A DNA stretch of 64,000 bases from Shigella phage ESh24. The translations under genes and the position numbers were made by a program. Below the pieces are notes generated by a model that saw only the letters and a program-made list of their open reading frames with translations, was not told the DNA's origin and searched no databases. Below, one piece after another: positions 3,496 to 55,657 of this stretch (its first letter is position 1; each line of letters starts with the position of its first letter). The DNA is taken from the sequence record ON528734; one strand, given 5' to 3'.

Positions 3496-3625
3496 TCTTG
3501 TCAACTGTTAAGGAGAAGAGAATGAAAGTTTTGTTTGTTGTGTATGTAATGATTCAATATAATCACCCAATGTTTACTTATAATCTGGTGAACAACATTA
3601 TTGATATTATTCAAAGGAGTATGTA

Positions 3626-3811: not shown

Positions 3812-3812
3812 C

Positions 3813-4079
3813 ATGGGCTTTCCTAAATTAGAAGTAGGTGATTTGGTCTTAACAAAATTATGGAATGATGTTCAATCAGTAGAAATCTGTCAATATCGTG
3901 GAGCAACAGGTAATTTGATGTACACGATTTATAATCCAGAAATTTTATTAGAGTGTCATTTGGAACGCTTTATAAAAGACACCGATAGTATGCCGTATAG
4001 TGTATCGATTGTACGTAAATCTGATACAAAGGAATACTCTAAAATTTTAGAACAAATCAGCGCAAATAAAAAGGATTAA
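3813..4079 (+). CDS. hypothetical protein (88 aa)
   Basis: ORF starting MGFPKLEV just after upstream stop. Confidence 0.5.
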   Translation: MGFPKLEVGDLVLTKLWNDVQSVEICQYRGATGNLMYTIYNPEILLECHLERFIKDTDSMPYSVSIVRKSDTKEYSKILEQISANKKD

Positions 4080-4620: not shown

Positions 4621-5142
4621 ATGTTTATTTCAAGTGAAAGTGGTTTAATTCGTGCTGAATTTAAAAATGACATCTTTCTTATTCAAGGAGATGATATTAT
4701 TAAAATGAGTTATGACGAAATCAAGAAAATTTGTCATGCTCTTGAAAGTCATGGAAAAGTGAACGCTGTTATTGATATTGGCGATTTATGGGTGACACTT
4801 TATGAAGTATCCGAAGGATTTAACATTGAAGATGAAAATAACATTTTAGCTATTGATAAAAGAAGTGATTTGTTTGATGTATTAAAAGTTTATGAACAGT
4901 CAAATGGCGGAAGAAAAGCTGTATTGATTTATCAAAAACCGCATTCATGTGGAACTGCTTCAATCATTTCAAATATTGAAGATGAAACTGATACTTATAT
5001 GTGTGTTTTAAAAGCTGGTGGTGACCGTCATCCGGATTTTATTTCTATTCGTCAAAACAATGGAGAAATTTCATTATCAAAATCAGAAGCTGAAGCGATG
5101 ATTAAGTATTTAACAACCGTTACGCCTTCAATGAAAGGATAA
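4621..5142 (+). CDS. hypothetical protein (173 aa), paralog of previous gene
   Basis: Shared C-terminal motif with 4081-4614. Confidence 0.6.
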   Translation: MFISSESGLIRAEFKNDIFLIQGDDIIKMSYDEIKKICHALESHGKVNAVIDIGDLWVTLYEVSEGFNIEDENNILAIDKRSDLFDVLKVYEQSNGGRKAVLIYQKPHSCGTASIISNIEDETDTYMCVLKAGGDRHPDFISIRQNNGEISLSKSEAEAMIKYLTTVTPSMKG

Positions 5143-5144
5143 TT

Positions 5145-5606
5145 ATGATTATTAATGAAAACTCTTGGCACTATAAATTATTCAAATTGTTTAACGATGA
5201 ATGGCAACGACCTAAGACACTATGTGCATACTTTTGGTCTATTGTTATCCCTACATTTTTCGTTTCTATTTTTGGGTGTACTATACTCGTAGGGCTAACA
5301 ATTATTTGTGCAGAAAGCCTACAACGTTGGCTTATTTTCGGTAGTTTATGGACTCTTCTTCCATTAGCATTTATACTTGCGCTTTTGGTTGTTTTACTTA
5401 TTATCGGTTCATTTGTTATTCCTGCACATTTGCGTGAAAAATATAAAGATTATAAATGGAAAAAGGATTATGCTTTACACGTAGAAAATATTGATAGGGC
5501 GTATAAAGGTTTACCTCCTATTCAACCCAAGAAATCTATTATCGTCGAATTTTTAAAAGCTCGTAAAGCTAAAGTATGTCCTGTTATTGAATATAAGGCT
5601 GAATGA
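5145..5606 (+). CDS. predicted integral membrane protein (153 aa)
   Basis: Three hydrophobic segments; ATGA-coupled to downstream NTase gene. Confidence 0.6.
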   Translation: MIINENSWHYKLFKLFNDEWQRPKTLCAYFWSIVIPTFFVSIFGCTILVGLTIICAESLQRWLIFGSLWTLLPLAFILALLVVLLIIGSFVIPAHLREKYKDYKWKKDYALHVENIDRAYKGLPPIQPKKSIIVEFLKARKAKVCPVIEYKAE

Positions 5607-14432: not shown

Positions 14433-14879
14433 ATGATTACAGTAAATAAATGGTTTAGAATTAATCGTGCTGATAATGGTCTTTGTACATACTGGCCAGA
14501 ACTCAATGTAGGCACCGTCTTTAAAGTTCGTCAAATTGCATGTGAAGATCTTGATAGTATAGAATCTGATACTGGAATTATTGAAATTGAACTTTCTGAC
14601 GGAAAGATTATTAATATCTACGATAAGCCAATTACTTACTGGTGTTTGTGGAATAACGAATCTGTCGAAAATGGCGAAATTGAAGAAGTTGTAGAACGAA
14701 TTGATCAAGTTCTTCATAAACCCAAAGCTGAATTCCAAGGTGAACGTATTTCTTATGCTCTAGCTAAATTAGCTGGGCAAGAGAATAATGATGGTTATGA
14801 AGGTAACCTGATGCAAGCTGCGGCAGAATATATTGAATGGCTTGAAACTCAAAAATCTTTTTCTGACCGAGCGTTTTAA
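14433..14879 (+). CDS. hypothetical protein (148 aa); possibly pin (protease inhibitor) by position
   Basis: Position between nrdC and 49; identity not verifiable from sequence alone. Confidence 0.45.
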   Translation: MITVNKWFRINRADNGLCTYWPELNVGTVFKVRQIACEDLDSIESDTGIIEIELSDGKIINIYDKPITYWCLWNNESVENGEIEEVVERIDQVLHKPKAEFQGERISYALAKLAGQENNDGYEGNLMQAAAEYIEWLETQKSFSDRAF

Positions 14880-15055
14880 TGAAAACTGAACTGATTTATA
14901 CAGAAAAACTGAATGGCGGCAAGGTCTGGAAACTTTTTATTAAAGGAAGTCCTGTCGATCCCAATATGACTACTTGTGTAGGAACTTATTCCCGTCCTAC
15001 TAAAAAGATGATTCGACAATATAAGCGATTGCATCGTGCATTTTACAATACTTGA
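14879..15055 (+). CDS. hypothetical basic small protein (58 aa)
   Basis: ATGA overlap with upstream ORF. Confidence 0.4.
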   Translation: MKTELIYTEKLNGGKVWKLFIKGSPVDPNMTTCVGTYSRPTKKMIRQYKRLHRAFYNT

Positions 15056-15096: not shown

Positions 15097-15570
15097 ATGT
15101 TATTGACTGGCAAATTATACAAAGAAGAAAAACAGAAATTTTATGATGCACAAAATGGTAAATGTTTAATTTGCCAGCGAGAACTAAATCCTGATGTTCA
15201 AGCTAATCATCTTGATCATGACCATGAATTAAATGGACCAAAAGCAGGAAAGGTACGTGGATTGCTTTGTAATCTCTGCAATGCCGCAGAAGGTCAAATG
15301 AAACATAAATTTAATCGTTCTGGCTTAAAGGGGCAAGGTGTTGATTATCTTGAATGGTTAGAAAATTTACTTACTTATTTAAAATCCGATTACACCCAAA
15401 ATAATATTCACCCTAACTTTGTTGGAGATAAATCAAAGGAATTTTCTCGTTTAGGAAAAGATGAAATGATGGCTGAGATGCTTCAAAGAGGATTTGAATA
15501 TAATGAATCTGACACTAAAACACAGTTAATAGCTTCATTTAAGAAGCAGCTTAGAAAGAGTTTAAAATGA
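15097..15570 (+). CDS. 49: endonuclease VII (Holliday junction resolvase)
   Basis: 157 aa; CLICQ...HLDHDHELNG...CNLCN His-Cys box typical of T4 EndoVII. Confidence 0.9.
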   Translation: MLLTGKLYKEEKQKFYDAQNGKCLICQRELNPDVQANHLDHDHELNGPKAGKVRGLLCNLCNAAEGQMKHKFNRSGLKGQGVDYLEWLENLLTYLKSDYTQNNIHPNFVGDKSKEFSRLGKDEMMAEMLQRGFEYNESDTKTQLIASFKKQLRKSLK

Positions 15571-17384
15571 CAATTGAAAAAGAAATTGAAGGATTGATTC
15601 ATAAAACTAATAAAGACCTTTTGAACGAGAATGCTAATAAAGATTCTCGTGTTTTTCCAACTCAACGGGACCTTATGGCTGGTATTGTGTCTAAACACAT
15701 TGCCAAAAATATGGTCCCGTCTTTTATTATGAAAGCGCATGAAAGCGGAATTATTCATTTCCATGATATTGATTATTCCCCTGCTCTTCCATTTACTAAT
15801 TGTTGTTTAGTAGATTTAAAAGGAATGCTTGAAAACGGATTTAAGCTTGGTAATGCACAGATTGAAACTCCTAAATCAATTGGAGTTGCTACTGCAATTA
15901 TGGCACAAATTACTGCGCAAGTTGCTTCTCACCAATACGGCGGAACGACCTTTGCGAATGTAGATAAAGTACTTTCTCCTTATGTTAAACGCACCTATGC
16001 AAAACATATTGAGGATGCAGAAAAATGGCAAATCGCCGATGCGTTGAATTATGCTCAATCTAAAACAGAAAAAGATGTATACGATGCATTCCAAGCTTAT
16101 GAATATGAAGTAAATACTCTCTTTAGTTCAAACGGACAGACTCCTTTTGTAACAATTACATTTGGTACGGGAACTGACTGGACTGAACGAATGATTCAGA
16201 AAGCAATTCTGAAAAATCGTATTAAAGGTCTTGGTCGTGATGGGATAACTCCTATTTTCCCTAAGCTTGTTATGTTCGTCGAAGAAGGTGTTAATCTTTA
16301 TAAAGACGATCCGAACTATGATATTAAGCAACTTGCTCTAGAGTGCGCAAGTAAAAGAATGTATCCTGATATTATTTCAGCTAAGAACAATAAAGCTATC
16401 ACTGGCTCATCTATTCCTGTTTCTCCAATGGGTTGTCGTAGTTTCTTGAGCATATGGAAAGATTCGACTGGTAATGAAATTCTTGATGGACGTAATAATC
16501 TTGGCGTTGTAACACTGAATCTTCCTCGTATCGCATTAGATTCTTATATTGGAACACAGTTCAATGAACAGAAATTTACTGAATTATTCAATGAACGAAT
16601 GGATTTATGTTTTGAAGCTTTGATGCGTAGAATTAGTTCCTTAAAAGGAGTTAAAGCTACTGTTGCTCCTATTCTTTACCAAGAAGGTGCATTCGGGGTT
16701 CGTCTTAAACCTGACGACGACATAATTGAGTTATTTAAAAACGGTAGAAGTTCAGTGTCTTTAGGATACATTGGTATTCACGAATTGAATATTCTTGCCG
16801 GTCGTGATATTGGACGAGAAATTTTAACTAAAATGAATGCTCGTCTTAAACAGTGGACTGAAAGAACTGGATTTGCTTTTAGTTTATATTCGACTCCTGC
16901 TGAAAACCTTTGTTATCGCTTCTGTAAACTTGATACTGAAAAATATGGAAGTGTAAAGGATGTTACCGATAAAGGCTGGTACACTAATAGTTTCCATGTT
17001 TCAGTAGAAGAAAATATTACTCCGTTTGAAAAGATTTCTCGTGAAGCGCCATATCATTTCATTGCGACAGGTGGTCACATTTCTTATGTTGAACTTCCTG
17101 ATATGAAAAATAACTTAAAGGGTCTTGAGGCTGTCTGGGATTATGCTGTGCAGCATTTAGATTATTTTGGTGTTAACATGCCAGTAGATAAGTGTTTTAC
17201 ATGCGGAAGTACCCATGAAATGACTCCTACTGAAAGCGGATTTGTTTGTTCTATTTGTGGAGAAAGTGATCCTAAAAAGATGAACACAATAAGAAGAACA
17301 TGTGGTTATTTGGGAAATCCGAACGAGCGCGGATTTAATCTTGGCAAAAATAAAGAAATCATGCATAGGGTTAAACACCAATGA
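15567..17384 (+). CDS. nrdD: anaerobic ribonucleoside-triphosphate reductase, intron-less
   Basis: 605 aa uninterrupted; glycyl-radical motif RRTCGYLG and C-terminal CFTCG...CSICG zinc site. Confidence 0.95.
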   Translation: MTIEKEIEGLIHKTNKDLLNENANKDSRVFPTQRDLMAGIVSKHIAKNMVPSFIMKAHESGIIHFHDIDYSPALPFTNCCLVDLKGMLENGFKLGNAQIETPKSIGVATAIMAQITAQVASHQYGGTTFANVDKVLSPYVKRTYAKHIEDAEKWQIADALNYAQSKTEKDVYDAFQAYEYEVNTLFSSNGQTPFVTITFGTGTDWTERMIQKAILKNRIKGLGRDGITPIFPKLVMFVEEGVNLYKDDPNYDIKQLALECASKRMYPDIISAKNNKAITGSSIPVSPMGCRSFLSIWKDSTGNEILDGRNNLGVVTLNLPRIALDSYIGTQFNEQKFTELFNERMDLCFEALMRRISSLKGVKATVAPILYQEGAFGVRLKPDDDIIELFKNGRSSVSLGYIGIHELNILAGRDIGREILTKMNARLKQWTERTGFAFSLYSTPAENLCYRFCKLDTEKYGSVKDVTDKGWYTNSFHVSVEENITPFEKISREAPYHFIATGGHISYVELPDMKNNLKGLEAVWDYAVQHLDYFGVNMPVDKCFTCGSTHEMTPTESGFVCSICGESDPKKMNTIRRTCGYLGNPNERGFNLGKNKEIMHRVKHQ

Positions 17385-17851
17385 ATTATGACAGAATATA
17401 CCCGTGCTGCTTTGTGAATGGCCCTGGATGCAGGACTGTTCTTTTCGTTACAGGTTGTTTGCATAAATGCGAAGGGTGTTATAATAAATCAACATGGAAT
17501 GCTAGAAATGGTATTCCATTCACTGGTGAAACACTAGAGCAATTAATTGAATGTTTGAATAATGATTATATAGAAGGATTAACTATAACTGGAGGAGACC
17601 CTCTCTATCCTGATAATCGAGATGTTATTCATTGCATTGTTCAAACAGTAAAAAATCTTTATCCCAATAAAAGCATTTGGTTGTGGACAGGATATAAATT
17701 TGAAGATATTAAACAACTAGAAATGCTTAAATATGTTGATGTTATTATTGATGGGAAGTATGAGAAAAATCTTCCGACTAAAAAGCTGTGGCGAGGATCA
17801 GATAATCAGCGACTTTGGTCAAATACCGATGGGGTGTGGAAACATGATTAA
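17381..17851 (+). CDS. nrdG: anaerobic RNR activating enzyme (radical SAM)
   Basis: 156 aa; CLHKCEGCYN radical-SAM Cys cluster; ATGA overlap with nrdD. Confidence 0.92.
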   Translation: MNYDRIYPCCFVNGPGCRTVLFVTGCLHKCEGCYNKSTWNARNGIPFTGETLEQLIECLNNDYIEGLTITGGDPLYPDNRDVIHCIVQTVKNLYPNKSIWLWTGYKFEDIKQLEMLKYVDVIIDGKYEKNLPTKKLWRGSDNQRLWSNTDGVWKHD

Positions 17852-21570: not shown

Positions 21571-21617
21571 GCTTTATAAATTTTTGGTAAAATAAACCAA
21601 AACAAAGAGGATATTAA

Positions 21618-22820
21618 ATGAAAGTATGTATTTTTATGGCTCGAGGTCTTGAAGGTTGTGGTGTAACAAAATTCTCACTCGAGCAACGTGATTGGTTTAT
21701 TAAAAATGGTCATGAAGTAACTTTGGTTTATGCTAAAGATAAATCATTTACTCGTAATTGTGCGCATGATTATAAGTCATTTTCAATTCCGGTTTTATTG
21801 GCAAAAGAATATGATAAAACACTTAAGCTGGTAAATGATTGTGATATTCTAATTATCAATTCAGTTCCTGCTACTTCGGTTGAAGAAGACACTATTAATA
21901 ACTATAAAAAAATTATTGATAACATTAAACCTTCTGTTCGTGTTGTAGTTTATCAGCATGACCATTCTTCTCTTTCTTTGCGCCGAAATTTGGGATTAGA
22001 AGAAACTGTTCGTCGAGCTGATGTTATTTTTAGCCATTCTGATAATGGTGATTTTAATAAAGTTCTGATGAAAGAATGGTATCCAGAAACTGTTTCTCTG
22101 TTTGATGATATTGAAGAAGCACCGACCGTATACAACTTTCAGCCTCCGATGGATATTGCTAAGGTTCGGTCAACCTACTGGAAAGATGTTTCTGAAATTA
22201 ACATGAATATTAACCGTTGGATTGGTCGTACGACTACATGGAAAGGTTTTTATCAGATGTTTGATTTTCACGAAAAACATCTTAAACCTGCAGGACTAAG
22301 TACTATTATGGAAGGTCTGGAACGTTCTCCAGCGTTCATTCCTATTAAAGAAAAAGGAATTCCATACGAGTATTATCGTCTTCATCAAGTAGACCAAATT
22401 AAAATTGCTCCTAATTTGCCAACGCAAATTCTTGACCGTTATGTAAATAGCGAAATGCTTGAACGCATGAGTAAATCCGGTTTTGGTTATCAGCTGAGTA
22501 AATTAGATAAAAAATATCTACAACGTTCTTTAGAATATACTCATCTCGAGCTTGGTGCATGTGGAACAATTCCGGTATTTTGGAAATCTACTGGCGAAAA
22601 TTTAAAATTCCGTGTTGATAATACTCCTTTGACCTCGCATGATAGCGGTATCATTTGGTTTGATGAAAATGACATGGAATCAACATTTGAACGTATTAAA
22701 GAACTGTCATCTGACCGAACTCTTTATGACCGCGAACGCGAAAAAGCTTATGAATTTTTGTATCAGCATCAAGATTCAAGCTTCTGCTTTAAAGAACAGT
22801 TTGACATTATTACAAAATAA
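21618..22820 (+). CDS. a-gt: DNA alpha-glucosyltransferase
   Basis: 400 aa; position between 55 and 47; matches T4 AGT N-terminus MKVCIFMARGLEGCGVTKFSLEQ. Confidence 0.9.
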   Translation: MKVCIFMARGLEGCGVTKFSLEQRDWFIKNGHEVTLVYAKDKSFTRNCAHDYKSFSIPVLLAKEYDKTLKLVNDCDILIINSVPATSVEEDTINNYKKIIDNIKPSVRVVVYQHDHSSLSLRRNLGLEETVRRADVIFSHSDNGDFNKVLMKEWYPETVSLFDDIEEAPTVYNFQPPMDIAKVRSTYWKDVSEINMNINRWIGRTTTWKGFYQMFDFHEKHLKPAGLSTIMEGLERSPAFIPIKEKGIPYEYYRLHQVDQIKIAPNLPTQILDRYVNSEMLERMSKSGFGYQLSKLDKKYLQRSLEYTHLELGACGTIPVFWKSTGENLKFRVDNTPLTSHDSGIIWFDENDMESTFERIKELSSDRTLYDREREKAYEFLYQHQDSSFCFKEQFDIITK

Positions 22821-23000: not shown

Positions 23001-24016
23001 AAATTTTAAATTTAGGTGATTGGCATTTAGGCGTTAAAGCTGATGATGAGTGGATTCGCGGTATTCAAATTGATGGAATTAAGCAAGCGATAGAATATTC
23101 TAAGAAAAATGGAATTACGGTATGGATTCAATACGGTGATATTTTTGATGTGCGAAAAGCGATCACGCATAAAACTATGGAGTTTGCCCGTGAAATAGTT
23201 CAAATGCTTGATGGTGCTGGAATCACATTACATACTATTGTAGGAAATCACGATCTCCACTACAAAAATGTAATGCATCCAAATGCCTCTACTGAGCTTT
23301 TGGCTAAATATCCTAATGTTAAAGTATATGATAAGCCTACTACAGTAGATTTTGACGGATGTTTGATTGATTTAATTCCTTGGATGTGTGAAGAAAATAC
23401 TGGTGAAATTCTTGAACACATCAAAACTTCATCTGCTTCTTTTTGTGTTGGTCACTGGGAGCTGAATGGATTTTATTTTTATAAAGGAATGAAATCTCAC
23501 GGTCTTGAACCTGATTTCCTTAAGACTTATAAAGAAGTGTGGTCTGGTCACTTCCATACTATCTCTGAGGCTGCTAACGTCAGATATATTGGGACACCAT
23601 GGACACTAACTGCAGGTGACGAGAATGACCCTCGTGGGTTCTGGATGTTTGATACAGAAACAGAACGAATGGAATTTATTCCAAACAATACTACCTGGCA
23701 TCGTAGAATTCATTATCCATTTAAAGGAAAAATTGACTATAAAGATTTTACAAATCTATCAGTACGTGTTATAGTAACTGAAGTAGACAAAAATCTGACG
23801 AAGTTCGAATCTGAACTAGAAAAAGTTGTGCATTCATTACGAGTTGTGTCAAAAATTGATAACTCTGTCGAGTCAGATGAAAGTGAAGAAGTTGAAGTTC
23901 AATCTCTTCAGACGTTGATGGAAGAATACATCAATGCAATTCCAGACATCACTGATTCTGACCGTGAAGCACTTATTCAATATGCAAATCAGCTATATGT
24001 AGAGGCAACACAATGA
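22997..24016 (+). CDS. 47: recombination nuclease subunit gp47 (Mre11-like)
   Basis: 339 aa; phosphoesterase motifs LGDWHLG and GNHD. Confidence 0.93.
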   Translation: MKILNLGDWHLGVKADDEWIRGIQIDGIKQAIEYSKKNGITVWIQYGDIFDVRKAITHKTMEFAREIVQMLDGAGITLHTIVGNHDLHYKNVMHPNASTELLAKYPNVKVYDKPTTVDFDGCLIDLIPWMCEENTGEILEHIKTSSASFCVGHWELNGFYFYKGMKSHGLEPDFLKTYKEVWSGHFHTISEAANVRYIGTPWTLTAGDENDPRGFWMFDTETERMEFIPNNTTWHRRIHYPFKGKIDYKDFTNLSVRVIVTEVDKNLTKFESELEKVVHSLRVVSKIDNSVESDESEEVEVQSLQTLMEEYINAIPDITDSDREALIQYANQLYVEATQ

Positions 24017-24276
24017 CTTTTGATGAATTTAAAAATGTTATGATGAGTCAGCATTTTGAATGCGAAGTAAAAGATGATATTGGTCATAAAGAAATTATTG
24101 AATATTGGTTTGAACCGCTAGAGGTTGAAGATAATTGTATTAAAAAGGTTACAGTCTGCACTGACTGGGCTGTATCTTTTAACTTCAACATTTTAGATAA
24201 TGACACACCTAAATCATTACGAGATATGGCTGTATCTTGTATTAAGGATGCATACTGTGAAGTTTTCGACATTTGA
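24013..24276 (+). CDS. hypothetical protein (87 aa)
   Basis: ATGA overlap with 47. Confidence 0.5.
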   Translation: MTFDEFKNVMMSQHFECEVKDDIGHKEIIEYWFEPLEVEDNCIKKVTVCTDWAVSFNFNILDNDTPKSLRDMAVSCIKDAYCEVFDI

Positions 24277-24463
24277 CGTTAACGATGAATTCATAGCAAA
24301 TATTGATTATACCGAAGAAGATTCTAGATATGTTGGAATAATTTATATTACATCAAAAACAGCACAAGGTGTTGTTTGCATGGCTGAATTTGATGAATAC
24401 TTTTTAGATTATGATGATATGATAGAATGGTCTAAAAGATACATTAAAAGGAATCTTTTGTGA
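24200..24463 (+). CDS. hypothetical protein (start uncertain; overlaps upstream ORF by 77 nt)
   Basis: ORF ending at 46 start. Confidence 0.4.
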   Translation: MTHLNHYEIWLYLVLRMHTVKFSTFDVNDEFIANIDYTEEDSRYVGIIYITSKTAQGVVCMAEFDEYFLDYDDMIEWSKRYIKRNLL

Positions 24464-26142
24464 AGAATTTTAAACTAAACCGAGTTAGGTATCAAAATAT
24501 AATGTCAGTAGGTGGAAATCCTATTGACATTCAATTAGATAAGGTTCAAAAAACTCTTATTACTGGACGAAATGGCGGTGGTAAGTCTACTATGTTAGAA
24601 GCCATCACATTTGGGCTTTTTGGCAAGCCATTTCGTGATGTAAAGAAAGGTCAATTAATAAACAGCACAAATAAGAAAGAACTTTTAGTTGAACTGTGGA
24701 TGGAATATGATGAGAAAAAGTACTATATCAAAAGAGGACAAAAACCAAACGTTTTCGAAATCACCGTTAACGGTACACGTCTTAATGAATCTGCCAGCAG
24801 TAAAGATTTCCAAGCAGAATTTGAACAGCTTATCGGAATGTCATATGCCAGTTTCAAGCAGATTGTTGTCCTTGGTACAGCAGGGTATACCCCTTTCATG
24901 GGTTTGTCGACCCCTGCACGAAGAAAGCTTGTGGAAGACCTGCTTGAGGTAGGAACATTAGCTGAAATGGATAAGCTTAATAAAGCACTAATACGTGAAT
25001 TAAATTCACAAAACCAAGTGCTTGATGTTAAAAAAGATAGTATTATCCAACAAATTAAAATATATAATGATAATGTTGAACGTCAGAAAAAATTAACGGG
25101 TGACAACCTTACTCGTCTTCAAAATATGTATGATGATTTGGCAAAAGAAGCTAGAACGCTAAAATCGGAAATAGAAGAAGCTAATGAAAGATTAGTTAAT
25201 ATTGTTTTGGATGAAGACCCGACTGATGCATTTAATAAAATCGGTCAAGAAGCATTTTTAATTAAATCAAAAATTGACTCGTATAATAAAGTCATTAACA
25301 TGTATCACGAAGGTGGATTATGTCCAACCTGCTTGTCACAATTAAGTTCCGGTGATAAAGTTGTTTCTAAAATTAAAGATAAAGTTTCTGAATGTACGCA
25401 TTCATTTGAACAGCTTTCAACACACCGTGATAATTTAAAAGTTCTTGTTGACGAATACCGAGATAATATTAAAACCCAGCAGTCGTTGGCAAATGATATT
25501 CGCAATAAAAAGCAATCTCTAATCACGACGGTAGATAAAGCTAAAAAAGTTAAAGCAGCTATAGAAAAAGCATCTTCTGAGTTTATTGACCATGCTGATG
25601 AAATAGCACTGCTTCAAGAAGAACTTGATAAAATTGTTAAGACAAAAACTAATTTAGTAATGGAAAAATACCACCGAGGAATTTTGACTGATATGCTCAA
25701 AGATTCTGGTATTAAAGGTGCTATTATTAAAAAGTACATTCCATTATTTAATAAGCAGATTAACCATTATCTTAAAATAATGGAAGCGGATTATGTGTTT
25801 ACATTAGATGAAGAATTTAATGAGACAATTAAATCCCGTGGTCGTGAAGATTTTAGTTATGCTTCATTTAGTGAAGGCGAAAAAGCGCGAATTGATATTG
25901 CTCTTTTATTTACTTGGCGTGATATTGCTTCTATTGTATCTGGTGTTAGTATTAGTACATTAATACTCGATGAAGTGTTTGATGGGTCATTTGATGCCGA
26001 AGGTATTAAAGGTGTAGCTAATATTATAAATTCAATGAAAAACACTAATGTTTTTATAATTTCGCATAAAGACCATGACCCGCAAGAATATGGTCAGCAT
26101 CTTCAAATGAAGAAAGTTGGTCGATTTACTGTAATGGTTTAA
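24460..26142 (+). CDS. 46: recombination ATPase subunit gp46 (Rad50/SbcC-like)
   Basis: 560 aa; Walker A GRNGGGKST, CPTC zinc hook in coiled coil, Walker B LILDEVFDG. Confidence 0.93.
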   Translation: MKNFKLNRVRYQNIMSVGGNPIDIQLDKVQKTLITGRNGGGKSTMLEAITFGLFGKPFRDVKKGQLINSTNKKELLVELWMEYDEKKYYIKRGQKPNVFEITVNGTRLNESASSKDFQAEFEQLIGMSYASFKQIVVLGTAGYTPFMGLSTPARRKLVEDLLEVGTLAEMDKLNKALIRELNSQNQVLDVKKDSIIQQIKIYNDNVERQKKLTGDNLTRLQNMYDDLAKEARTLKSEIEEANERLVNIVLDEDPTDAFNKIGQEAFLIKSKIDSYNKVINMYHEGGLCPTCLSQLSSGDKVVSKIKDKVSECTHSFEQLSTHRDNLKVLVDEYRDNIKTQQSLANDIRNKKQSLITTVDKAKKVKAAIEKASSEFIDHADEIALLQEELDKIVKTKTNLVMEKYHRGILTDMLKDSGIKGAIIKKYIPLFNKQINHYLKIMEADYVFTLDEEFNETIKSRGREDFSYASFSEGEKARIDIALLFTWRDIASIVSGVSISTLILDEVFDGSFDAEGIKGVANIINSMKNTNVFIISHKDHDPQEYGQHLQMKKVGRFTVMV

Positions 26143-26395: not shown

Positions 26396-26785
26396 ATGAC
26401 TAAAATTACCGTGAATTATACTGTTGATGTAAAAGATATTCAGCCAAAACACGTGCGTTCTGAATCAAATCCACAAAACCAAAATAAAATTCGTCGAGCA
26501 TGGGTTTTGTCTCTTTCTGATAACGCAATGGAAGTTATTCAGAACAAAATTAAATCTGCACCTGCTCGTCATGCGTATTATGAAGCTATCGATCGTGAAG
26601 TAAGTAATAAATGGATTGAACTAATGCGCAAACATACTACAGAATCCCTAAACGCTGGTGCTAAATTTATTATGACTTCATGCGGTGAACGTCTTGAAGA
26701 TGATTATTGCGGTAATGCAGATGAACGTCTAATTGTTGCTGCTCAAATTGTTGCGGAAACAATTGTGGCCGAGTTTAATAAATGA
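26396..26785 (+). CDS. rpbA: RNA polymerase binding protein RpbA
   Basis: 129 aa; position between 46 and 45. Confidence 0.8.
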
Positions 26786-27670
26786 ATTTAGTATATCTTA
26801 TTAGCTTTCCAGAGCGGGAAGCTAAAAATATTTTTCCGTGTTATTATATAGGTTCAAAAATTAACGCAATTTTCGATGGAACAAATATAATTGATTCAGC
26901 TGGAAAGATTTATACTGGAAGCGTGTCATCGAGTTATAGTGATGAATATTTTGAGCTTATTAAAACCACTAAATATACCGTCAAAATTTTAGCTGAAACT
27001 ATATTAGATCCAAGAAAATTGGAAAGATTTTTTTCAATTAAAAGTTAAAGCAAAAAGCAATATAAAATATTTTAATAAAGCATACGCAGATGAAAATACT
27101 TTAATTGGCGCTAAAGGATATGGAACATATAAAAATGTTTTAACTGGAAAAATTGTAAAGCTTTCGCAATCTGAAATTACGCCCGATTATGTTGGTATTC
27201 GTAAAGGTTACAAACATAGTTCTGACGTAAAATATAAAATATCTAATTCAATGAAGAATCACTGGACCGATGAGAAAAAGCTTAAACTTTCAAATAAGAT
27301 GAAATTGAAATATCTTGATTGTAGTTATGCTAAAAAGTTTAGTGATATAATGAATTCAGAAAGTGTAAGATCAAAAATTTCTAAATCTCAAAAAGAGTTA
27401 TGGAATAATGCTGAAAGAAGACAGAGAGCTTCAATTCAAGCAACTGTTAGAAATAATTTACCGGAATTCAAATCAAAATTTAGAAAATCTAAAGCTAGAG
27501 GAACTTGGATTGAACATGAAGATGAATTAAAAACTTTATGGCATGCTTACGGAAAACCGAGTTATAATAAATTTCGTAAAATTGCAGTAGCTAATGGGTT
27601 TAACGACGAATCTTATCAGGGTGCTGTACGGTCCTGGTCTAACTATTATGTAAATAGGAAATTGAAATGA
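26782..27670 (+). pseudogene. seg-like GIY-YIG homing endonuclease gene split by a +1 frame change (parts 26782-27048 and 27008-27670)
   Basis: N part VYLIS...YYIGS (GIY-YIG-like); downstream frame has three NUMOD3-like repeats (GYKHSSDVKYKIS, TDEKKLKLSNKMK, SESVRSKISKSQKELW); frames meet at T7 run 27028-27034. Confidence 0.5.
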
Positions 27671-34050: not shown

Positions 34051-34791
34051 ATGATTAGTGACTCTATGACAGTTGAAGAAATCCGTCTTCATTTAGGGCT
34101 TGCATTAAAAGAAAAAGATTTCGTAGTTGATAAAACTGGTGTTAAAACTATTGAAATTATTGGCGCATCATTTGTAGCAGATGAACCGTTTATTTTTGGC
34201 GCTCTTAATGATGAATACATTCAGCGTGAACTTGAATGGTATAAATCTAAGAGTTTGTTTGTTAAAGATATTCCAGGTGAAACACCAAAGATTTGGCAGC
34301 AGGTAGCATCTTCTAAAGGTGAAATTAACTCGAATTATGGTTGGGCTATCTGGTCAGAAGATAACTATGCTCAATATGACATGTGTTTAGCTGAACTTGG
34401 TCAAAATCCTGATTCTCGACGTGGTATCATGATTTATACTCGTCCATCCATGCAATTTGACTACAATAAAGATGGTATGTCAGATTTCATGTGTACTAAT
34501 ACAGTACAGTACCTGATTCGTGATAAGAAAGTCAATGCAGTAGTAAGCATGCGCTCAAATGACGTGGTCTTCGGATTCCGTAATGATTATGCATGGCAAA
34601 AATACGTATTAGATAAATTAGTATCTGATTTGAATGCAGGCGATTCAACTCGTCAGTATAAAGCAGGTTCTATTATATGGAATGTCGGAAGTCTTCATGT
34701 ATATTCTCGTCATTTTTACTTGGTTGATCATTGGTGGAATACTGGCGAAACTCATATTGTGAAAAAAGACTATAAAGGTGAGTGGAAATGA
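34051..34791 (+). CDS. 42: dCMP hydroxymethylase gp42
   Basis: 246 aa; thymidylate-synthase-like; matches T4 gp42. Confidence 0.93.
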   Translation: MISDSMTVEEIRLHLGLALKEKDFVVDKTGVKTIEIIGASFVADEPFIFGALNDEYIQRELEWYKSKSLFVKDIPGETPKIWQQVASSKGEINSNYGWAIWSEDNYAQYDMCLAELGQNPDSRRGIMIYTRPSMQFDYNKDGMSDFMCTNTVQYLIRDKKVNAVVSMRSNDVVFGFRNDYAWQKYVLDKLVSDLNAGDSTRQYKAGSIIWNVGSLHVYSRHFYLVDHWWNTGETHIVKKDYKGEWK

Positions 34792-35630
34792 TTCAATTCG
34801 TAATTCCAAGCTATCAACGTGTAGGGGCAGTTTCTGCCATTGATATGTTTCCGACTGATTATGAACCTCATATTGTAGTGCGTGAACACGAAGAAAAAGC
34901 TTATTATGATGCCTATGGGTCTAAAGCTAAAATTATAACTATTCCTGATGATGTAAACGGAATTGCCGGTACTCGTAAAGCAATTACTGATATGTATGCA
35001 GGTCAACGAATCTGGATGATTGACGATGATACTACTATTCGTATGAGTTCAATGCGAAAAAGAGATGACCGTCGTTGTGTAGATAAAGTCAATCAATTAA
35101 CCCGTGAACAGTTCTATGAATTGATTCAATACGTTGAAGATGCCATGGATTGCGGGTATTATCACGGTCATGCTCGGCTACCAATTTTTAAAATTACTTC
35201 ATCTTGGGGTAATTATCGTGAAAATTCATATGGATTCACGAATACATGGTATGACCTTGGAAAACTTACGACAGAACAAATTGGGTATGGAAAAATTGAT
35301 TTATGCGAAGATATGTATGCATTTCTCAATTTAATTAATCAAGGTTATCCGCATTTGGCCTTGTTCAAATATCTTGTTGTATCCGGAAAAGCACAGGCTC
35401 CTGGCGGGTGCAGTTCAATTCGTAGTAATTCTAAACATAATAGAGCGCTTGAGCAGATTAATAGAGAGTTTCCAGAGCAAGCTCGTTGGAAAACTTCTAA
35501 TATTGAAAAACGAAAATCGTTGGGTGAAGAAGATGAACCATTAAAGGTTCTTCGCATGTGTGTTTCGCGCAAAGAAAAATCAGAAGCATTTCATAAGTTT
35601 AATGCTATTCATCCGATAGCAGTTGATTAA
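34788..35630 (+). CDS. GT-A-type glycosyltransferase with DxD motif; likely T2/T6-type beta-glucosyl-HMC-alpha-glucosyltransferase
   Basis: 280 aa; IWMIDDDTTI DxD motif; sits where T4 has beta-gt, which it does not resemble. Confidence 0.65.
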   Translation: MIQFVIPSYQRVGAVSAIDMFPTDYEPHIVVREHEEKAYYDAYGSKAKIITIPDDVNGIAGTRKAITDMYAGQRIWMIDDDTTIRMSSMRKRDDRRCVDKVNQLTREQFYELIQYVEDAMDCGYYHGHARLPIFKITSSWGNYRENSYGFTNTWYDLGKLTTEQIGYGKIDLCEDMYAFLNLINQGYPHLALFKYLVVSGKAQAPGGCSSIRSNSKHNRALEQINREFPEQARWKTSNIEKRKSLGEEDEPLKVLRMCVSRKEKSEAFHKFNAIHPIAVD

Positions 35631-37235: not shown

Positions 37236-38663
37236 GTGGTAGAAATTATTCTTTCTCATCTTATATTTGATCAAGCTTATTTTTCAAAAGTTTGGCCATA
37301 TATGGATTCAGAATATTTTGAAAGTGGTCCAGCTAAAAATACATTCAAATTAATTAAATCTCATGTTAATGAGTATCATAGCGTTCCATCTATCAATGCG
37401 TTAAATGTTGCATTAGAAAATAGTTCATTTACTGAAACAGAATATTCTGGTGTAAAAACACTTATTTCAAAACTGGCTGATTCTCCAGAAGACCACAGTT
37501 GGTTAGTAAAAGAAACAGAAAAATATGTTCAGCAAAGGGCGATGTTTAATGCTACGTCTAAAATAATCGAAATTCAAACTAATGCTGAGCTTCCTCCGGA
37601 AAAACGAAATAAGAAAATGCCGGATGTTGGTGCTATTCCTGACATCATGCGGCAAGCATTATCTATTTCATTTGATAGTTACGTTGGTCATGATTGGATG
37701 GATGACTATGAAGCACGTTGGCTATCTTATATGAATAAAGCTCGTAAAGTTCCATTTAAACTCAGAATTCTAAACAAAATTACTAAAGGCGGAGCTGAAA
37801 CAGGAACACTGAACGTTTTAATGGCTGGCGTTAACGTTGGTAAATCATTAGGACTTTGTTCATTAGCAGCAGATTATTTGCAGCTTGGTCATAACGTTCT
37901 TTATATCTCCATGGAAATGGCAGAAGAAGTCTGCGCTAAACGTATTGATGCTAATATGCTCGATGTTTCTCTTGACGATATTGATGATGGACATATTTCT
38001 TACGCTGAGTATAAAGGAAAAATGGAAAAATGGCGTGAGAAATCTACTCTCGGTCGTTTAATCGTTAAACAGTATCCTACTGGTGGAGCAGACGCTAATA
38101 CATTCAGGTCTCTCTTGAACGAATTGAAGCTCAAAAAGAATTTTGTTCCAACAATCATTATTGTCGACTATCTAGGTATTTGTAAATCTTGCCGCATTAG
38201 AGTTTATTCAGAAAATAGTTACACAACTGTTAAAGCTATTGCAGAGGAATTGCGTGCTCTGGCTGTTGAAACCGAAACTGTTCTTTGGACTGCAGCACAG
38301 GTCGGTAAACAAGCTTGGGACTCTTCTGATGTTAACATGAGCGATATTGCAGAATCTGCCGGTCTTCCAGCAACGGCTGATTTTATGCTTGCGGTCATTG
38401 AAACCGAGGAGCTAGCAGCTGCTGAACAACAACTCATTAAGCAAATCAAATCACGATATGGTGATAAGAATAAGTGGAATAAGTTTTTGATGGGTGTTCA
38501 AAAAGGAAATCAAAAATGGGTAGAAATTGAACAAGATTCTACTCCAAGTGAAGTGAGTGAGGTAGCAGGTTCACAACAGATTCAGGCTGAACAGAATCGC
38601 TATCAAAGAAACGAATCGACTCGAGCTCAGTTAGATGCTTTGGCAAATGAATTAAAATTTTAA
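37236..38663 (+). CDS. 41: replicative DNA helicase gp41 (DnaB-like), GTG start
   Basis: 475 aa; Walker A GVNVGKS; AGGAG RBS before GTG. Confidence 0.95.
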   Translation: MVEIILSHLIFDQAYFSKVWPYMDSEYFESGPAKNTFKLIKSHVNEYHSVPSINALNVALENSSFTETEYSGVKTLISKLADSPEDHSWLVKETEKYVQQRAMFNATSKIIEIQTNAELPPEKRNKKMPDVGAIPDIMRQALSISFDSYVGHDWMDDYEARWLSYMNKARKVPFKLRILNKITKGGAETGTLNVLMAGVNVGKSLGLCSLAADYLQLGHNVLYISMEMAEEVCAKRIDANMLDVSLDDIDDGHISYAEYKGKMEKWREKSTLGRLIVKQYPTGGADANTFRSLLNELKLKKNFVPTIIIVDYLGICKSCRIRVYSENSYTTVKAIAEELRALAVETETVLWTAAQVGKQAWDSSDVNMSDIAESAGLPATADFMLAVIETEELAAAEQQLIKQIKSRYGDKNKWNKFLMGVQKGNQKWVEIEQDSTPSEVSEVAGSQQIQAEQNRYQRNESTRAQLDALANELKF

Positions 38664-38694
38664 TTTACAAGCTGACAAGACTATGGTATAGTAG
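38663..38694 (+). promoter_or_regulatory. T4-type early promoter
   Basis: ATTTACAAGCTGACAAGACTATGGTATAGT. Confidence 0.65.
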
Positions 38695-41371: not shown

Positions 41372-42711
<1,340 letters not shown>

Positions 42712-42771: not shown

Positions 42772-43290
42772 ATGGCTCACTTTAATGAATGTTCACAACT
42801 GATCGAAGGCGCTGATAAAGCTCAAAATGAATATTGGGATATTCTCGGTGATGAAAAAGACCCGCTGCAGGTTATGCTTGACATGCAGAAATCTTTGCAG
42901 GTTCGTTTAGCTAAAGATAAACCTGAATATAACCGTCATCCTGATGATTTGGCTACTGCAGGTGAAGTTGTTGATTGGCTGCGTAATCAGAAAGATTATA
43001 TTGACGATGAATTCCGTGAACTTCTGACTTCTCTTGGTGGTATGAGTAATGGTGAAAAAGACGCATCTGCTGTATGGAAACCTTGGAAGTCGCAGCATGG
43101 TGAACGTCGTGAAACTCTGATTACTGATTTGTCTCCACAGGACCAGTTAGAAATCAAATTCGAAATGATTGATATTCTCCATTTTGTTCTGAACATGTTT
43201 CAAGGTCTTGGTCTTACAGCAGAAGAAATCTTTAAACTTTATTATCTGAAAAATGCTGAAAATTTCGCTCGTCAAGACCGAGGTTATTAA
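42772..43290 (+). CDS. 56: dCTP/dCDP pyrophosphatase gp56
   Basis: 172 aa starting MAHFNECSQL; MazG-like. Confidence 0.9.
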   Translation: MAHFNECSQLIEGADKAQNEYWDILGDEKDPLQVMLDMQKSLQVRLAKDKPEYNRHPDDLATAGEVVDWLRNQKDYIDDEFRELLTSLGGMSNGEKDASAVWKPWKSQHGERRETLITDLSPQDQLEIKFEMIDILHFVLNMFQGLGLTAEEIFKLYYLKNAENFARQDRGY

Positions 43291-43330
43291 CAGCTCGTCT
43301 TAAAAGCCGCGAGAATTTATTATAAATAAT

Positions 43331-43338
43331 CATGTAAT
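43331..43338 (+). promoter_or_regulatory. T4 late promoter TATAAATA upstream of soc
   Basis: Exact TATAAATA 21 nt before soc ATG. Confidence 0.7.
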
Positions 43339-43358
43339 TTAAATAAAAGGAGAATTAC

Positions 43359-43604
43359 ATGGCTAGTACTCGCGGTTATGTTAATATCAAAACATTTGAG
43401 CAGAAATTAGATGGAAATAAGAAAATTGAAGGAAAGGAAATTTCAGTAGCTTTCCCTCTTTATTCTGACGTTCACAAAATTTCTGGTGCTCATTACCAGA
43501 CGTTCCCTTCAGAAAAAGCAGCATATACTACTGTATATGAAGAAAATCAGCGTACTGAATGGATTGCTGCAAACGAAGATTTGTGGAAAGTAACTGGTGG
43601 TTAA
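43359..43604 (+). CDS. soc: small outer capsid protein
   Basis: 81 aa; matches T4 Soc. Confidence 0.9.
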   Translation: MASTRGYVNIKTFEQKLDGNKKIEGKEISVAFPLYSDVHKISGAHYQTFPSEKAAYTTVYEENQRTEWIAANEDLWKVTGG

Positions 43605-53839: not shown

Positions 53840-55657
53840 ATGATTAAGAATGAAATTAAAATTCTGAGCGATATTGAACATATCAAAAAGCGTAGTGGCA
53901 TGTATATTGGCTCTTCTGCTAATGAAATGCATGAGCGCTTTCTGTTTGGTAAATGGGAAAGTGTTCAGTATGTACCTGGTCTTGTTAAGCTTATTGATGA
54001 AATTATCGATAACTCAGTAGATGAAGGTATTCGTACTAAGTTTAAATTCGCGAATAAAATTAATGTTACCATTAAAAATAATCAGGTAACAGTTGAAGAT
54101 AACGGTCGCGGTATTCCACAAGCGATGGTTAAAACACCTACCGGTGAAGAAATTCCTGGTCCAGTTGCTGCTTGGACTATTCCAAAAGCAGGTGGTAACT
54201 TTGGCGATGATAAAGAACGTGTCACCGGTGGTATGAATGGTGTTGGTTCTAGTTTGACAAACATTTTTTCTGTGATGTTTGTCGGTGAAACTGGCGATGG
54301 TCAAAATAATATTGTAGTTCGTTGTTCAAATGGCATGGAAAATAAATCATGGGAAGATATTCCTGGAAAATGGAAAGGAACTCGTGTTACTTTCATTCCA
54401 GATTTTATGTCATTTGAAACTAATGAGCTGTCCCAAGTTTATCTTGACATTACACTGGATCGTCTCCAGACGCTTGCTGTAGTTTATCCTGATATTCAAT
54501 TTACCTTTAATGGTAAAAAGGTTCAGGGCAATTTTAAGAAATATGCACGACAGTATGATGAGCATGCTATTGTTCAAGAACAAGAAAATTGTTCTATTGC
54601 GGTTGGTCGTTCACCGGATGGATTTCGTCAATTAACTTACGTGAATAACATTCATACTAAGAATGGTGGCCATCACATTGATTGTGTTATGGATGATATT
54701 TGTGAAGACCTTATTCCACAAATCAAACGTAAGTTCAAAATTGATGTCACTAAAGCACGTGTCAAAGAATGTTTGACTATCGTTATGTTTGTCCGTGATA
54801 TGAAAAACATGCGATTTGACTCTCAAACTAAAGAACGACTTACTTCTCCATTTGGCGAAATTCGTAGTCATATTCAACTTGATGCTAAAAAGATTTCACG
54901 TGCTATTTTAAATAATGAAGCAATTTTAATGCCAATTATTGAAGCTGCTTTGGCTCGTAAATTGGCGGCAGAAAAAGCAGCAGAAACTAAAGCAGCTAAA
55001 AAGGCTTCTAAAGCTAAAGTTCATAAACATATTAAAGCGAATCTTTGTGGTAAAGATGCTGACACTACATTGTTCTTAACCGAGGGTGATTCAGCTATCG
55101 GATATCTTATTGATGTTCGCGATAAAGAACTTCATGGCGGTTATCCATTGCGTGGTAAAGTTCTTAATAGCTGGGGTATGTCATATGCCGATATGCTTAA
55201 AAACAAAGAACTATTTGATATTTGCGCAATCACTGGATTGGTTCTTGGTGAAAAAGCTGAAAACTTGAATTATCATAATATTGCTATTATGACCGATGCT
55301 GACCATGATGGTCTAGGAAGCATTTATCCTTCTCTTCTTGGATTTTTTAGTAATTGGCCAGAACTGTTTGAGCAAGGAAGAATTCGCTTTGTCAAAACTC
55401 CTGTAATCATCGCTCAGGTCGGTAAAAAACAAGAATGGTTTTATACAGTCGCTGAATATGAGAGTGCCAAAGATGCTCTACCTAAACATAGCATCCGTTA
55501 TATTAAGGGACTTGGCTCTTTGGAAAAATCTGAATATCGTGAGATGATTCAGAACCCAGTATATGATGTTGTTAAACTTCCTGAGAACTGGAAAGAGCTT
55601 TTTGAAATGCTCATGGGAGATAATGCTGACCTTCGTAAAGAATGGATGAGCCAGTAG
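53840..55657 (+). CDS. 39: DNA topoisomerase II large subunit (GyrB-like), single uninterrupted gene
   Basis: 605 aa; GHKL ATPase EDNGRGIP and Toprim LTEGDSA in one ORF, versus split 39 + 60 in T4. Confidence 0.93.
   Translation: MIKNEIKILSDIEHIKKRSGMYIGSSANEMHERFLFGKWESVQYVPGLVKLIDEIIDNSVDEGIRTKFKFANKINVTIKNNQVTVEDNGRGIPQAMVKTPTGEEIPGPVAAWTIPKAGGNFGDDKERVTGGMNGVGSSLTNIFSVMFVGETGDGQNNIVVRCSNGMENKSWEDIPGKWKGTRVTFIPDFMSFETNELSQVYLDITLDRLQTLAVVYPDIQFTFNGKKVQGNFKKYARQYDEHAIVQEQENCSIAVGRSPDGFRQLTYVNNIHTKNGGHHIDCVMDDICEDLIPQIKRKFKIDVTKARVKECLTIVMFVRDMKNMRFDSQTKERLTSPFGEIRSHIQLDAKKISRAILNNEAILMPIIEAALARKLAAEKAAETKAAKKASKAKVHKHIKANLCGKDADTTLFLTEGDSAIGYLIDVRDKELHGGYPLRGKVLNSWGMSYADMLKNKELFDICAITGLVLGEKAENLNYHNIAIMTDADHDGLGSIYPSLLGFFSNWPELFEQGRIRFVKTPVIIAQVGKKQEWFYTVAEYESAKDALPKHSIRYIKGLGSLEKSEYREMIQNPVYDVVKLPENWKELFEMLMGDNADLRKEWMSQ

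Follow-up and report, generated by a model that had tools for sequence, protein, structure and literature searches.

Absence of the T4 homing elements from a 64-kb segment of a T-even phage

Empty homing-endonuclease loci

The 64-kb stretch of Shigella phage ESh24 analysed here (record ON528734; the whole stretch is called the window) very probably, at about 0.95, comes from an ordinary T-even phage (Tequatrovirus) and carries uninvaded, "parental" alleles at all loci of the interval that are colonised by homing-endonuclease genes (HEGs) in T4. Of the seven T4 homing-endonuclease loci of this interval none is occupied (0/7), a count that covers 64 kb of a ~167-kb genome, the segB, segC, segD, segE, segG, mobE, I-TevI and I-TevIII loci lying outside. 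No trace of mobA, 60.1, segF, segA, mobB, mobC, I-TevII or mobD has been found in the window by DNA comparison, tblastn or HMM searches; in T4, as a positive control, the HMMs recovered mobA, mobB, mobC, mobD, segA, segF and I-TevII. The lack of T4 selfish elements proposed in a preliminary description of this DNA therefore extends to every T4 homing element of the interval.

The window runs from tk to gene 52, in reverse orientation to the T4 map, and shows ~95–97% identity to many database phages. In a whole-window comparison it is colinear with T4, T2 and T6, with a mean nucleotide identity of the aligned backbone of 95.4% to T2, 95.0% to T6 and 95.1% to T4. The term "T2/T6-like backbone" used previously is thus justified for how the genes are arranged at gene 39, nrdD and mobD, but not for overall similarity. 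In the alignment to these three phages the loci flagged beforehand differ from T4, and the T4 structure described for them is the one observed. The window also differs from T2 and T6, both of which carry an insert of ~860 bp between genes 46 and 46.1 that is missing here; the T6 insert contains an ORF with an HHxxP motif as in the T4 Mob proteins and no Pfam match. T6 also encodes a probable homing endonuclease of 244 aa between nrdD and nrdG (NUMOD3 and a sub-threshold match to the I-TevI DNA-binding domain), likewise missing from the window. Only the sequences of records AP018813 and AP018814 were used, their annotations being unreliable (nrdD, for example, bears the name "RNA ligase 1 and tail fiber attachment catalyst").

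Gene 39

53840–55657, plus strand: gene 39, unsplit topoisomerase II large subunit ("60plus39", the parental Topo2L allele), single ORF of 605 aa
55258–55321, plus strand: empty MobA site, parental segment of ~64 nt; T4 homology breaks at 55257 and 55322 (blastn)

The ORF extends from 53837 or 53840 to 55657, the 605 residues being counted from the ATG. Its product is recognised by Pfam HATPase_c, DNA_gyraseB, Toprim and TOPRIM_C and by PHROG 543, and GyrB-type profiles match residues 4–604 as one stretch; the GHKL ATPase, the GyrB transducer, the Toprim domain and the C-terminal region are all present in one full-length ORF. This unbroken match, together with an interval of ~65 nt in place of the T4 cassette, bears out the earlier statement that the gene split in T4 is here a single 605-aa ORF. 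T4 positions 2793–3911, comprising the end of 39, mobA, 60.1, the start of 60 and the 50-nt bypass, correspond by blastn to only that short piece of the window.

The amino acid sequence of gp39 is identical to that of T2 at 604/605 positions and to that of T6 at 603/605. The genes of T2, T6 and RB14 ("gp60plus39"; the RB14 record names it "60plus39") share with the window the single 605-aa ORF, the 64-nt segment and the flanking 39.1 and rIIA.1, and nothing substantial sets it apart from T2, only a single residue and a few synonymous changes. In T4 the same topoisomerase subunit is spread over 39, mobA, 60.1 and 60, and the sequences to either side of the insertion site match the window at 95–96% identity; missing from the window is the whole 1.1-kb cassette (Bonocora et al. 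2011; Manning & Atkins 2022), made of the gp39 C-terminal extension (CTE), mobA, the gp60 N-terminal extension (NTE)/homR and the bypass. The mobA of laboratory T4 is itself a pseudogene, and HY01 is an example of a phage with an intact copy.

The parental segment aligns with T2 and T6 and not with T4, and its one difference from T2 is synonymous. According to the published description, the MobA element deleted 55–75 nt and put a divergent homR in their place. The position of the empty site fits the published insertion window (nt 1399–1419 to D490/G491 plus 9 nt), and the segment fits the published 64-nt deletion (Topo2L nt ~1419–1482). Searches for the MobA cassette (an HNH mobA gene or its remnant, CTE/NTE, a 50-nt coding gap) by blastn, tblastn and HMMs gave no match, and alignment with T2, T6 and T4 was also negative. 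The whole topoisomerase II large subunit is encoded by gene 39 as a single polypeptide, which leaves gene 60, translational bypass and MobA unneeded. For annotation, a single gene 39 ("60plus39") with no gene 60 and no bypass is indicated.

nrdD

15567–17384, plus strand: nrdD, intronless, 605 aa; NCBIfam NrdD equivalog NF006732 at 905 bits (cutoff 657)
Between 16104 and 16105, plus strand: empty intron/I-TevII site in nrdD, located by comparison with T4

The gene has the same length (1818 nt) as in T2, T6 and spliced T4. In T4 the same host gene (sunY), with exons about 96% identical, is interrupted after the position equivalent to window base 16104 by an intron of 1033 nt with I-TevII, which the window lacks. 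An Rfam scan of the whole window for group I introns or other RNA families returned 0 matches, while the T4 nrdD intron was recovered as RF00028 at 105 bits in a positive control. The full-length ORF and this result agree with the previous account of a continuous nrdD lacking a group I intron and I-TevII. Around the insertion point the sequence equals that of T2/T6 over about 50 nt, whereas T4 shows 7 synonymous differences from the window, T2 and T6 within ~25 nt. The nrdD mRNA would be translated unspliced.

Remaining T4 homing-endonuclease sites

43291–43358, plus strand: spacer between gene 56 (stop at 43290) and soc (start at 43359), 68 bp; empty segF site
4621–5606, plus strand: mobD slot, with a y05I-like paralogue (4621–5142) and a membrane protein gene (5145–5606); T4 homology is lost over 4639–5602, opposite T4 mobD
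17381–17384, plus strand: empty mobC site, the overlap of the nrdD stop and the nrdG start (nrdG ORF 17381–17851); T4 42916–43519 (mobC) has no counterpart
21603–21626, plus strand: empty mobB site upstream of a-gt; T4 37817–38679 (mobB) corresponds to ~25 nt
34782–35630, plus strand: beta-glucosyl-HMC-alpha-glucosyltransferase gene of T2/T6 type, replacing T4 23555–25497 (beta-gt and segA)

The T4 genes segF, segA, mobB, mobC and mobD (Edgell, Gibb & Belfort 2010, Table 1) are all five missing in the window, and their neighbour genes and the gene order are conserved. The gene pairs 56/soc, nrdD/nrdG and a-gt.2/a-gt adjoin directly. Coordinates and T4 comparison both support the reported distance of 68 bp between gene 56 and soc without segF: T4 segF (T4 15606–16280) has no blastn counterpart in the window, and tblastn and HMM searches for a SegF trace at this junction were negative. 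T2 and T6 carry here a two-ORF insert of ~350 bp which the window lacks, although the last 33 nt of the spacer are the 3' end of one of these small ORFs and ~16 nt resemble the start of the second. Compact junctions are also present in phages Pinarejo (100% identity) and AR1, examples restricted to single-piece matches; the database count of 257/481 for this locus is not a count of compact junctions, as pieces up to ~630 nt apart were joined and T2-type inserts are included. Gene 56 itself is a third, mosaic allele; for a large part of the gene its nucleotide sequence is 20–45% divergent from T2/T6 and from T4 alike, and its last ~80 nt are identical or nearly so to T6 and T2.

The absence of an HNH mobD-type ORF after rI.1 was described correctly: the slot between rI.1 and nrdC.11 is filled, as in T2/T6, by two non-nuclease genes (Pfam T4_y05I_N/C; PHROG 1502 and 944), colinear with T2 and T6, and a six-frame HMM scan for an HNH gene was negative. 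The segA, mobB and mobC genes, unlisted in that description, are absent as well. No HNH match was obtained at the mobB site by tblastn or the HMM scan. The glucosyltransferase gene at the segA locus (PHROG 842 at E 6e-89, Pfam TAGT) is colinear with T2 and T6.

Nuclease genes present in the window

26782–27670, plus strand: seg-like GIY-YIG homing-endonuclease gene, frameshifted, between rpbA and gene 45
41372–41932, plus strand: ORF186, PD-(D/E)xK-like; its stop overlaps the start codon of dam (41932–42711)

The lineage is not generally free of homing elements, as one seg-like GIY-YIG gene is located at another site (rpbA/45). It lies in an 877-bp insert missing from T4, T2 and T6. Both halves have PHROG matches (7504 and 655, "homing endonuclease"), the GIY-YIG HMM matches at E 1e-12, and Pfam gives no match above threshold; the profile matches fit a GIY-YIG module at the N-terminus followed by a DNA-binding C-terminal region. 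Intact copies of 295 aa occupy the same site in Shigella phage SHBML-50-1 (YP_009288422) and Escherichia phage PaulHMueller (bas45_0164) at ~98% nucleotide identity, with ~16 differences in 888 aligned positions plus one extra T. This T, in the run 27028–27034 (seven residues versus six), causes a +1 frameshift and splits the gene into ORFs of 88 and 139 aa, in line with what had been noted before. The gene has been either recently inactivated by the single-base frameshift or mis-sequenced, as an extra base in such a homopolymer may be an error of sequencing. It is found in 24/424 records.

Among all window segments without T4 homology, Pfam and PHROGs searches for hidden HEGs revealed only this pseudogene. 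The other such segments encode a Phage_tudor protein, the y05I-like paralogue, the membrane protein, a goF/phrog_622-like protein and small unassigned ORFs. Nothing further was detected by tblastn, for which the queries were T4 HEG proteins and two T6 ORFs, or by six-frame hmmsearch with custom GIY-YIG and HNH profiles, which were built from four sequences each and are blind to unrelated nuclease families (e.g. LAGLIDADG, VSR-like). The seg-like gene and a dam-linked nuclease had been named as the only endonuclease-like genes; this stands for homing-type enzymes but not overall, because orthologues of gp49 endo VII, gp46/47, DenB and DexA, assigned by colinearity with the T4 annotation, are present.

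ORF186 lies in a 537-bp insert relative to T4 that is present in T2. The residues D72...E85-x-K87, placed on predicted strands E66–77 and E80–88, are invariant in 7–8 homologues. The Pfam DpnII profile (PF04556) matches at 16.8 bits (E 0.0045; T2 copy 15.7 bits), below its gathering score of 23, and no match was obtained among PDB sequences or in NCBIfam. The AlphaFold model (pLDDT 79) retrieves through Foldseek mostly PD-(D/E)xK nucleases as top PDB matches, at a TM of only 0.35–0.44; these include 1xmx (E 2.7e-4), 1y88, the R2 endonuclease domain, Bax1, Can2, McrC and Mus81. The invariant D...ExK motif and the fold class that dominates the Foldseek list are in keeping with the earlier designation of the ORF upstream of dam as nuclease-like. 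In the window, as in each of three divergent relatives examined, it adjoins dam or overlaps it; homologues with 48–63% identity keep the pairing with a downstream adjoining gene, a Dam-family methyltransferase in both cases with Pfam data. At a coverage of at least 80%, ORF186 is present in 146 (roughly 150) database Tequatrovirus records, T2 included; it is absent from T4, and both ORF186 and dam are absent from the T6 record used. Speculatively, and with rather low probability, ORF186 could encode a GATC-related PD-(D/E)xK endonuclease whose pairing with the phage Dam is conserved and probably involves translational coupling; the two would then make up a module for competitor exclusion or one resembling restriction-modification.

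Origin of the empty sites

The phage had been regarded as either naive to the T4 elements or purged of them. The sequence favours the former at gene 39 and nrdD, where the alleles appear never to have been invaded, because the parental segment deleted by MobA is kept and the intron site is of T2/T6 type; purging is disfavoured. If an ancestor had possessed the T4 elements and lost them by deletion, the clean junctions would be scars. The 56–soc spacer, with its two small-ORF ends, does resemble a deletion product, the seg-like gene at rpbA/45 is a HEG in decay, and lineages are known in which MobA was lost but the flanking extensions were kept (Manning & Atkins 2022). However, the deletion at 56–soc removed the T2/T6-type pair of small ORFs and not segF. 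Gene 39 lacks the CTE/NTE/homR that outlasts MobA loss in the documented cases, and its parental 64-nt segment could not be regenerated by simple deletion. The nrdD exon flanks are of T2/T6 type and not of the T4 type with its 7 synonymous changes, and HEG fragments, CTE/NTE remnants and T4-type exon flanks are absent at the sites. Purging by deletion is consequently very improbable. Loss through recombination with an uninvaded relative would give a product indistinguishable from a naive allele.

An equally slight chance is given to resistance, i.e. to targets diverged so far that the T4 endonucleases no longer cut and the phage is immune rather than naive. The third, 20–45% divergent allele of gene 56 shows variation of the kind expected around a SegF target, but the final ~80 nt of this gene match T6 and T2 completely or almost so. 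Against resistance at the other two loci, the gene 39 target region has a single synonymous difference from T2, which is a published MobA recipient (Bonocora et al. 2011, as given in a citing paper), and the nrdD site is that of T2/T6 over about 50 nt. Clean junctions produced by assembly collapse or by reference-guided assembly on a T2-like genome can be dismissed as a negligible prospect, as nothing specific speaks for such an artefact beyond the extra T of the seg-like gene, which may be a sequencing error, whereas the same junctions recur in hundreds of independently sequenced phages and all ORFs concerned are intact and of full length.

With never-invaded alleles, the phage would be the recipient and not the donor in a mixed infection with T4, judging by published T4 x T2 work. 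By the same analogy, MobA, SegF and I-TevII would presumably cleave its sites in gene 39, gene 56 and nrdD, with subsequent repair from the T4 copy; SegF sensitivity is particularly uncertain, because gene 56 is a third, mosaic allele. The description of these loci as classical marker-exclusion loci applies to SegF/56 and MobA/39, for which exclusion is documented, but not to nrdD, a case of intron homing, nor to mobD, for which neither activity nor target has been demonstrated (PMC2988022 Table 1; PMC2993671).

Prevalence and significance

The unsplit gene 39 junction is present in 472/515 database records and the T4 cassette in 43; the intronless nrdD junction is present in 619/691 and the intron in 27, the cassette and intron counts including several T4 records and partial T4 entries. 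An unsplit gene 39 and an intronless nrdD are the majority state of Tequatrovirus, and T4 is the exception. The richness of T4 in HEGs has been the subject of reviews since 2010 and of primary papers since the late 1980s, which also describe gene 39 as unsplit, nrdD as intronless and seg and mob genes as few or absent in T2, RB14, RB26 and most other relatives. The observation is real and already known, and the empty homing sites offer no new reading. The uneven HEG content of T-even phages was published in 2010, with 15 in T4, one in T2 and none in RB26 (T4 table: Edgell, Gibb & Belfort 2010, Table 1, PMC2988022).

A literature search on the ORF upstream of T2 dam gave nothing relevant, and the putative ORF186–dam nuclease is the sole part of the finding not found in the searchable literature; this pair is also the only item that might merit experimental work. 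The empty sites carry little weight as a discovery, and the phage would lend itself to experiments on homing or marker exclusion as the recipient genome.

Genomic context

The 64-kb window covers part of the genome of a T-even, T4-like phage (Tequatrovirus), in an orientation opposite to the T4 map. Its genes are arranged in the order tk (1089-1670), nrdC.x block, nrdD, nrdG, 55, a-gt and 47/46, followed by 45/44/62, 43, 42, uvsX, 41, 61, dam, 56 and soc, and then by dda, dexA, 39, rIIA, rIIB, denB, ndd and 52. Megablast with two sub-regions of the window found 95-97% identity to hundreds of phage records, JLBYU31 and ESh28 being the closest, with no identical record among these matches. The mean identity of the aligned backbone is 95.1% to T4, 95.4% to T2 and 95.0% to T6. 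The product names in the T2 (AP018813) and T6 (AP018814) records are unreliable and unfit as annotation evidence; they give nrdD, for instance, as 'RNA ligase 1 and tail fiber attachment catalyst' and rI as 'HNH homing endonuclease'.

Repeats of the form GTTTAC-N17-TGGTAcTAT, then ATCAACTAC..GGAG, about 40-95 nt each, occur at 2648, 6656, 8095, 18565, 33180, 41307, 45740, 50467, 52131, 59912, 60411 and 63528, with matches in several intergenic regions of T4 as well. They resemble early promoter/leader cassettes of the T4 type and appear ordinary among T-even phages.

Gene 39 and nrdD

Features of the two genes:
53840-55657, + strand, gene 39, a single ORF of 605 aa from ATG (606 from a GTG one codon upstream)
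15567-17384, + strand, nrdD, a continuous 605-aa ORF, above the NCBIfam NrdD equivalog cutoff
17381-17384, + strand, direct overlap of nrdD and nrdG, mobC missing

The preliminary description had reported gene 39 as a single ORF, against the split 39/60 of T4, and nrdD as free of the group I intron and I-TevII; both observations hold. The window gp39 is encoded as one polypeptide, in which the ATPase, transducer, Toprim and C-terminal domains were identified (Pfam/PHROG) and GyrB profiles match residues 4-604 in a single stretch. It is identical to T2 gp39 at 604/605 residues and to T6 gp39 at 603/605, gene 39 of both phages being likewise a single 1818-nt ORF; the RB14 annotation names the same gene '60plus39'. 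T4 homology stops at window position 55257 and restarts at 55322, while T4 holds between the corresponding points 1119 nt (T4 2793-3911) comprising the end of 39, the mobA pseudogene, 60.1, the start of 60 and the 50-nt coding gap. The MobA element has been described as 1097-1106 nt long, inserted between Topo2L nt 1399-1419 and D490/G491 with deletion of a 55-75-nt host segment, genomes with the unsplit gene being named 'parental' (Manning & Atkins 2022, bioRxiv 10.1101/2022.08.31.505936). The window break points, at gene nt 1418 and about 1483, agree with this description. The 64-nt parental segment is present and differs from T2 at a single position, and the aligned window gene is free of the extensions, derived from the element, that are retained in lineages known to have lost MobA.

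The T4 nrdD intron, of 1033 nt with I-TevII inside, would fall after window base 16104. The nrdD ORF runs through this site uninterrupted and requires no splicing; an Rfam search, shown by a control to detect the intron of T4 nrdD, found no group I intron in the entire window. The window, T2 and T6 share an identical stretch of about 50 nt around the insertion site, whereas T4 carries seven synonymous differences within about 25 nt.

The lineage had been proposed to be either naive to, or purged of, the T4 elements. Purging by deletion at gene 39 is unlikely, as deletion is unable to restore the parental 64-nt segment. Because this segment is kept, the extensions are missing and the nrdD site is of T2/T6 type, both genes look like never-invaded alleles or, indistinguishably, alleles re-acquired by recombination from never-invaded phages.

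Other homing loci

Features at these loci:
4621-5142, + strand, y05I-like paralogue, opposite T4 mobD
5145-5606, + strand, membrane protein gene, opposite T4 mobD
34782-35630, + strand, T2/T6-type beta-glucosyl-HMC-alpha-glucosyltransferase gene, replacing T4 beta-gt and segA
26782-27670, + strand, seg-like GIY-YIG homing endonuclease gene, an 877-bp insert between rpbA and gene 45

As previously noted, no HNH mobD-type ORF separates rI.1 from the nrdC.x block; two unrelated genes, the same as in T2 and T6, occupy the mobD slot. The first of them, a second y05I-like gene (mobD.1 paralogue), adjoins the mobD.1 orthologue (4081-4614) and is extra relative to T4, as is a Phage_tudor domain protein gene (3801-4079) in the rI-nrdC region. 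Comparison with T4 indicated that segA, mobB and mobC, not named earlier, are missing too, about 25 nt standing in place of mobB. None of the seven T4 homing endonuclease gene (HEG) loci of this interval is occupied (0/7). In six-frame hmmsearch, small GIY-YIG and HNH profiles picked up mobA, mobB, mobC, mobD, segA, segF and I-TevII in the T4 control, and gave a single match in the window, at the seg-like gene; tblastn of the T4 HEG proteins found no match in the window beyond a weak one there. Pfam/PHROG scans of all window segments lacking T4 homology revealed no further homing-type nuclease.

The insert with the seg-like gene is absent from T4, T2 and T6 and carried by 24 of 424 matching records; SHBML-50-1 and PaulHMueller hold an intact 295-aa copy, with homing endonuclease as its annotation. 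The window copy, about 98% identical to the intact ones, is frameshifted as reported: an extra T in the run at 27028-27034 (T7 against T6) splits its ORF. The extra base reflects either inactivation in the very recent past or a sequencing error in the homopolymer.

T6 encodes a 284-aa ORF between 46 and 46.1 (AP018814 24489-25343) with an HHxxP motif as in T4 Mob proteins and no Pfam match, and a 244-aa ORF between nrdD and nrdG (AP018814 32432-33166) that has a NUMOD3 motif and matches the I-TevI DNA-binding domain below threshold; in T2 the former exists in split form, around AP018813 24898-25750. The window lacks both, which leaves this interval emptier than in T2 and T6. At 14879-15055, between pin and gene 49, an insert of 138 bp that is missing in T4, T2 and T6 makes a small ORF (~58 aa) starting at the pin stop codon.

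The gene 56-soc and dam regions

Features of the region:
41372-41932, + strand, ORF186, a 186-aa reading frame between gene 61 and dam, its stop overlapping the dam ATG
41932-42711, + strand, dam, directly downstream
42772-43290, + strand, gene 56, a third, mosaic allele
43291-43358, + strand, 56-soc spacer, 68 bp, segF missing

The short gap without segF between the end of gene 56 (43290) and the start of soc (43359) was correctly described. T2 and T6 have a two-ORF insert at this place, and the spacer retains the final 33 nt (11 codons) of one of these small ORFs and a short stretch similar to the start of the other. It therefore appears to have arisen by deletion of ~350 bp of such a T2/T6-type insert rather than of segF. 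The compact junction is seen in other phages, e.g. Pinarejo (100% identical) and AR1. Gene 56 is T4-like over its first ~110 nt and identical or nearly identical to T6 and T2 over the last ~80 nt, with a middle part diverging by 20-45% from both types, far above the ~5% of the backbone.

ORF186 occurs in T2 and about 146 records, nearly always as 'hypothetical protein'; it is missing in T4, and missing together with dam in the T6 record. The proposal of a dam-linked nuclease is favoured, as a putative assignment, by D72, E85 and K87, invariant across homologues (D...ExK, the PD-(D/E)xK signature), a sub-threshold Pfam DpnII match, and an AlphaFold model (pLDDT 79) whose PDB matches are mainly PD-(D/E)xK nucleases at low TM scores. 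Metagenomic homologues of 63% and 57% identity lie directly against, or overlap, a gene for a Dam-family methyltransferase; a homologue of 48% likewise overlaps its downstream neighbour, a gene cut at the contig end, with no Pfam record. The statement that the seg-like and dam-linked genes are the only endonuclease-like ones stands for the homing type and fails in general, since colinearity with the T4 annotation places gp49, gp46/47, DenB and DexA, ordinary non-homing nucleases, in the window.

Prevalence and significance

With a 261-nt query spanning the gene 39 junction, counted at a coverage of at least 80%, the unsplit form was found in 472 of 515 matching records; 43 records hold the T4 cassette, several being T4 itself or partial T4 entries. 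The nrdD junction is uninterrupted in 619 of 691 and holds the intron in 27. Given these counts and the 56-soc examples, the unsplit, intronless, HEG-poor state is the norm and T4 the outlier. A published table lists the fifteen homing endonuclease genes of T4 with the sites of their insertion (Edgell, Gibb & Belfort 2010, PMC2988022), and HEG counts of 15 for T4, 11 for T6, 4 for RB32, 2 for RB14, 1 for T2 and 0 for RB26 are published (Petrov et al., PMC2993671). The empty loci are a well-documented, already known default of T4 relatives.

Comparison with T4, T2 and T6 shows that the loci differ from T4 and that the preliminary description was correct in every structural statement and essentially right in interpretation. 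Its term 'classical marker-exclusion loci' suits 56/segF and 39/mobA; it does not suit nrdD, a case of intron homing, or mobD, which has no demonstrated activity or target (PMC2988022).

Published T4 x T2 work suggests that, in cells co-infected with T4, this genome would receive the MobA cassette, segF and the nrdD intron. The conserved, putative nuclease-Dam pair of T-even phages may merit experiment.
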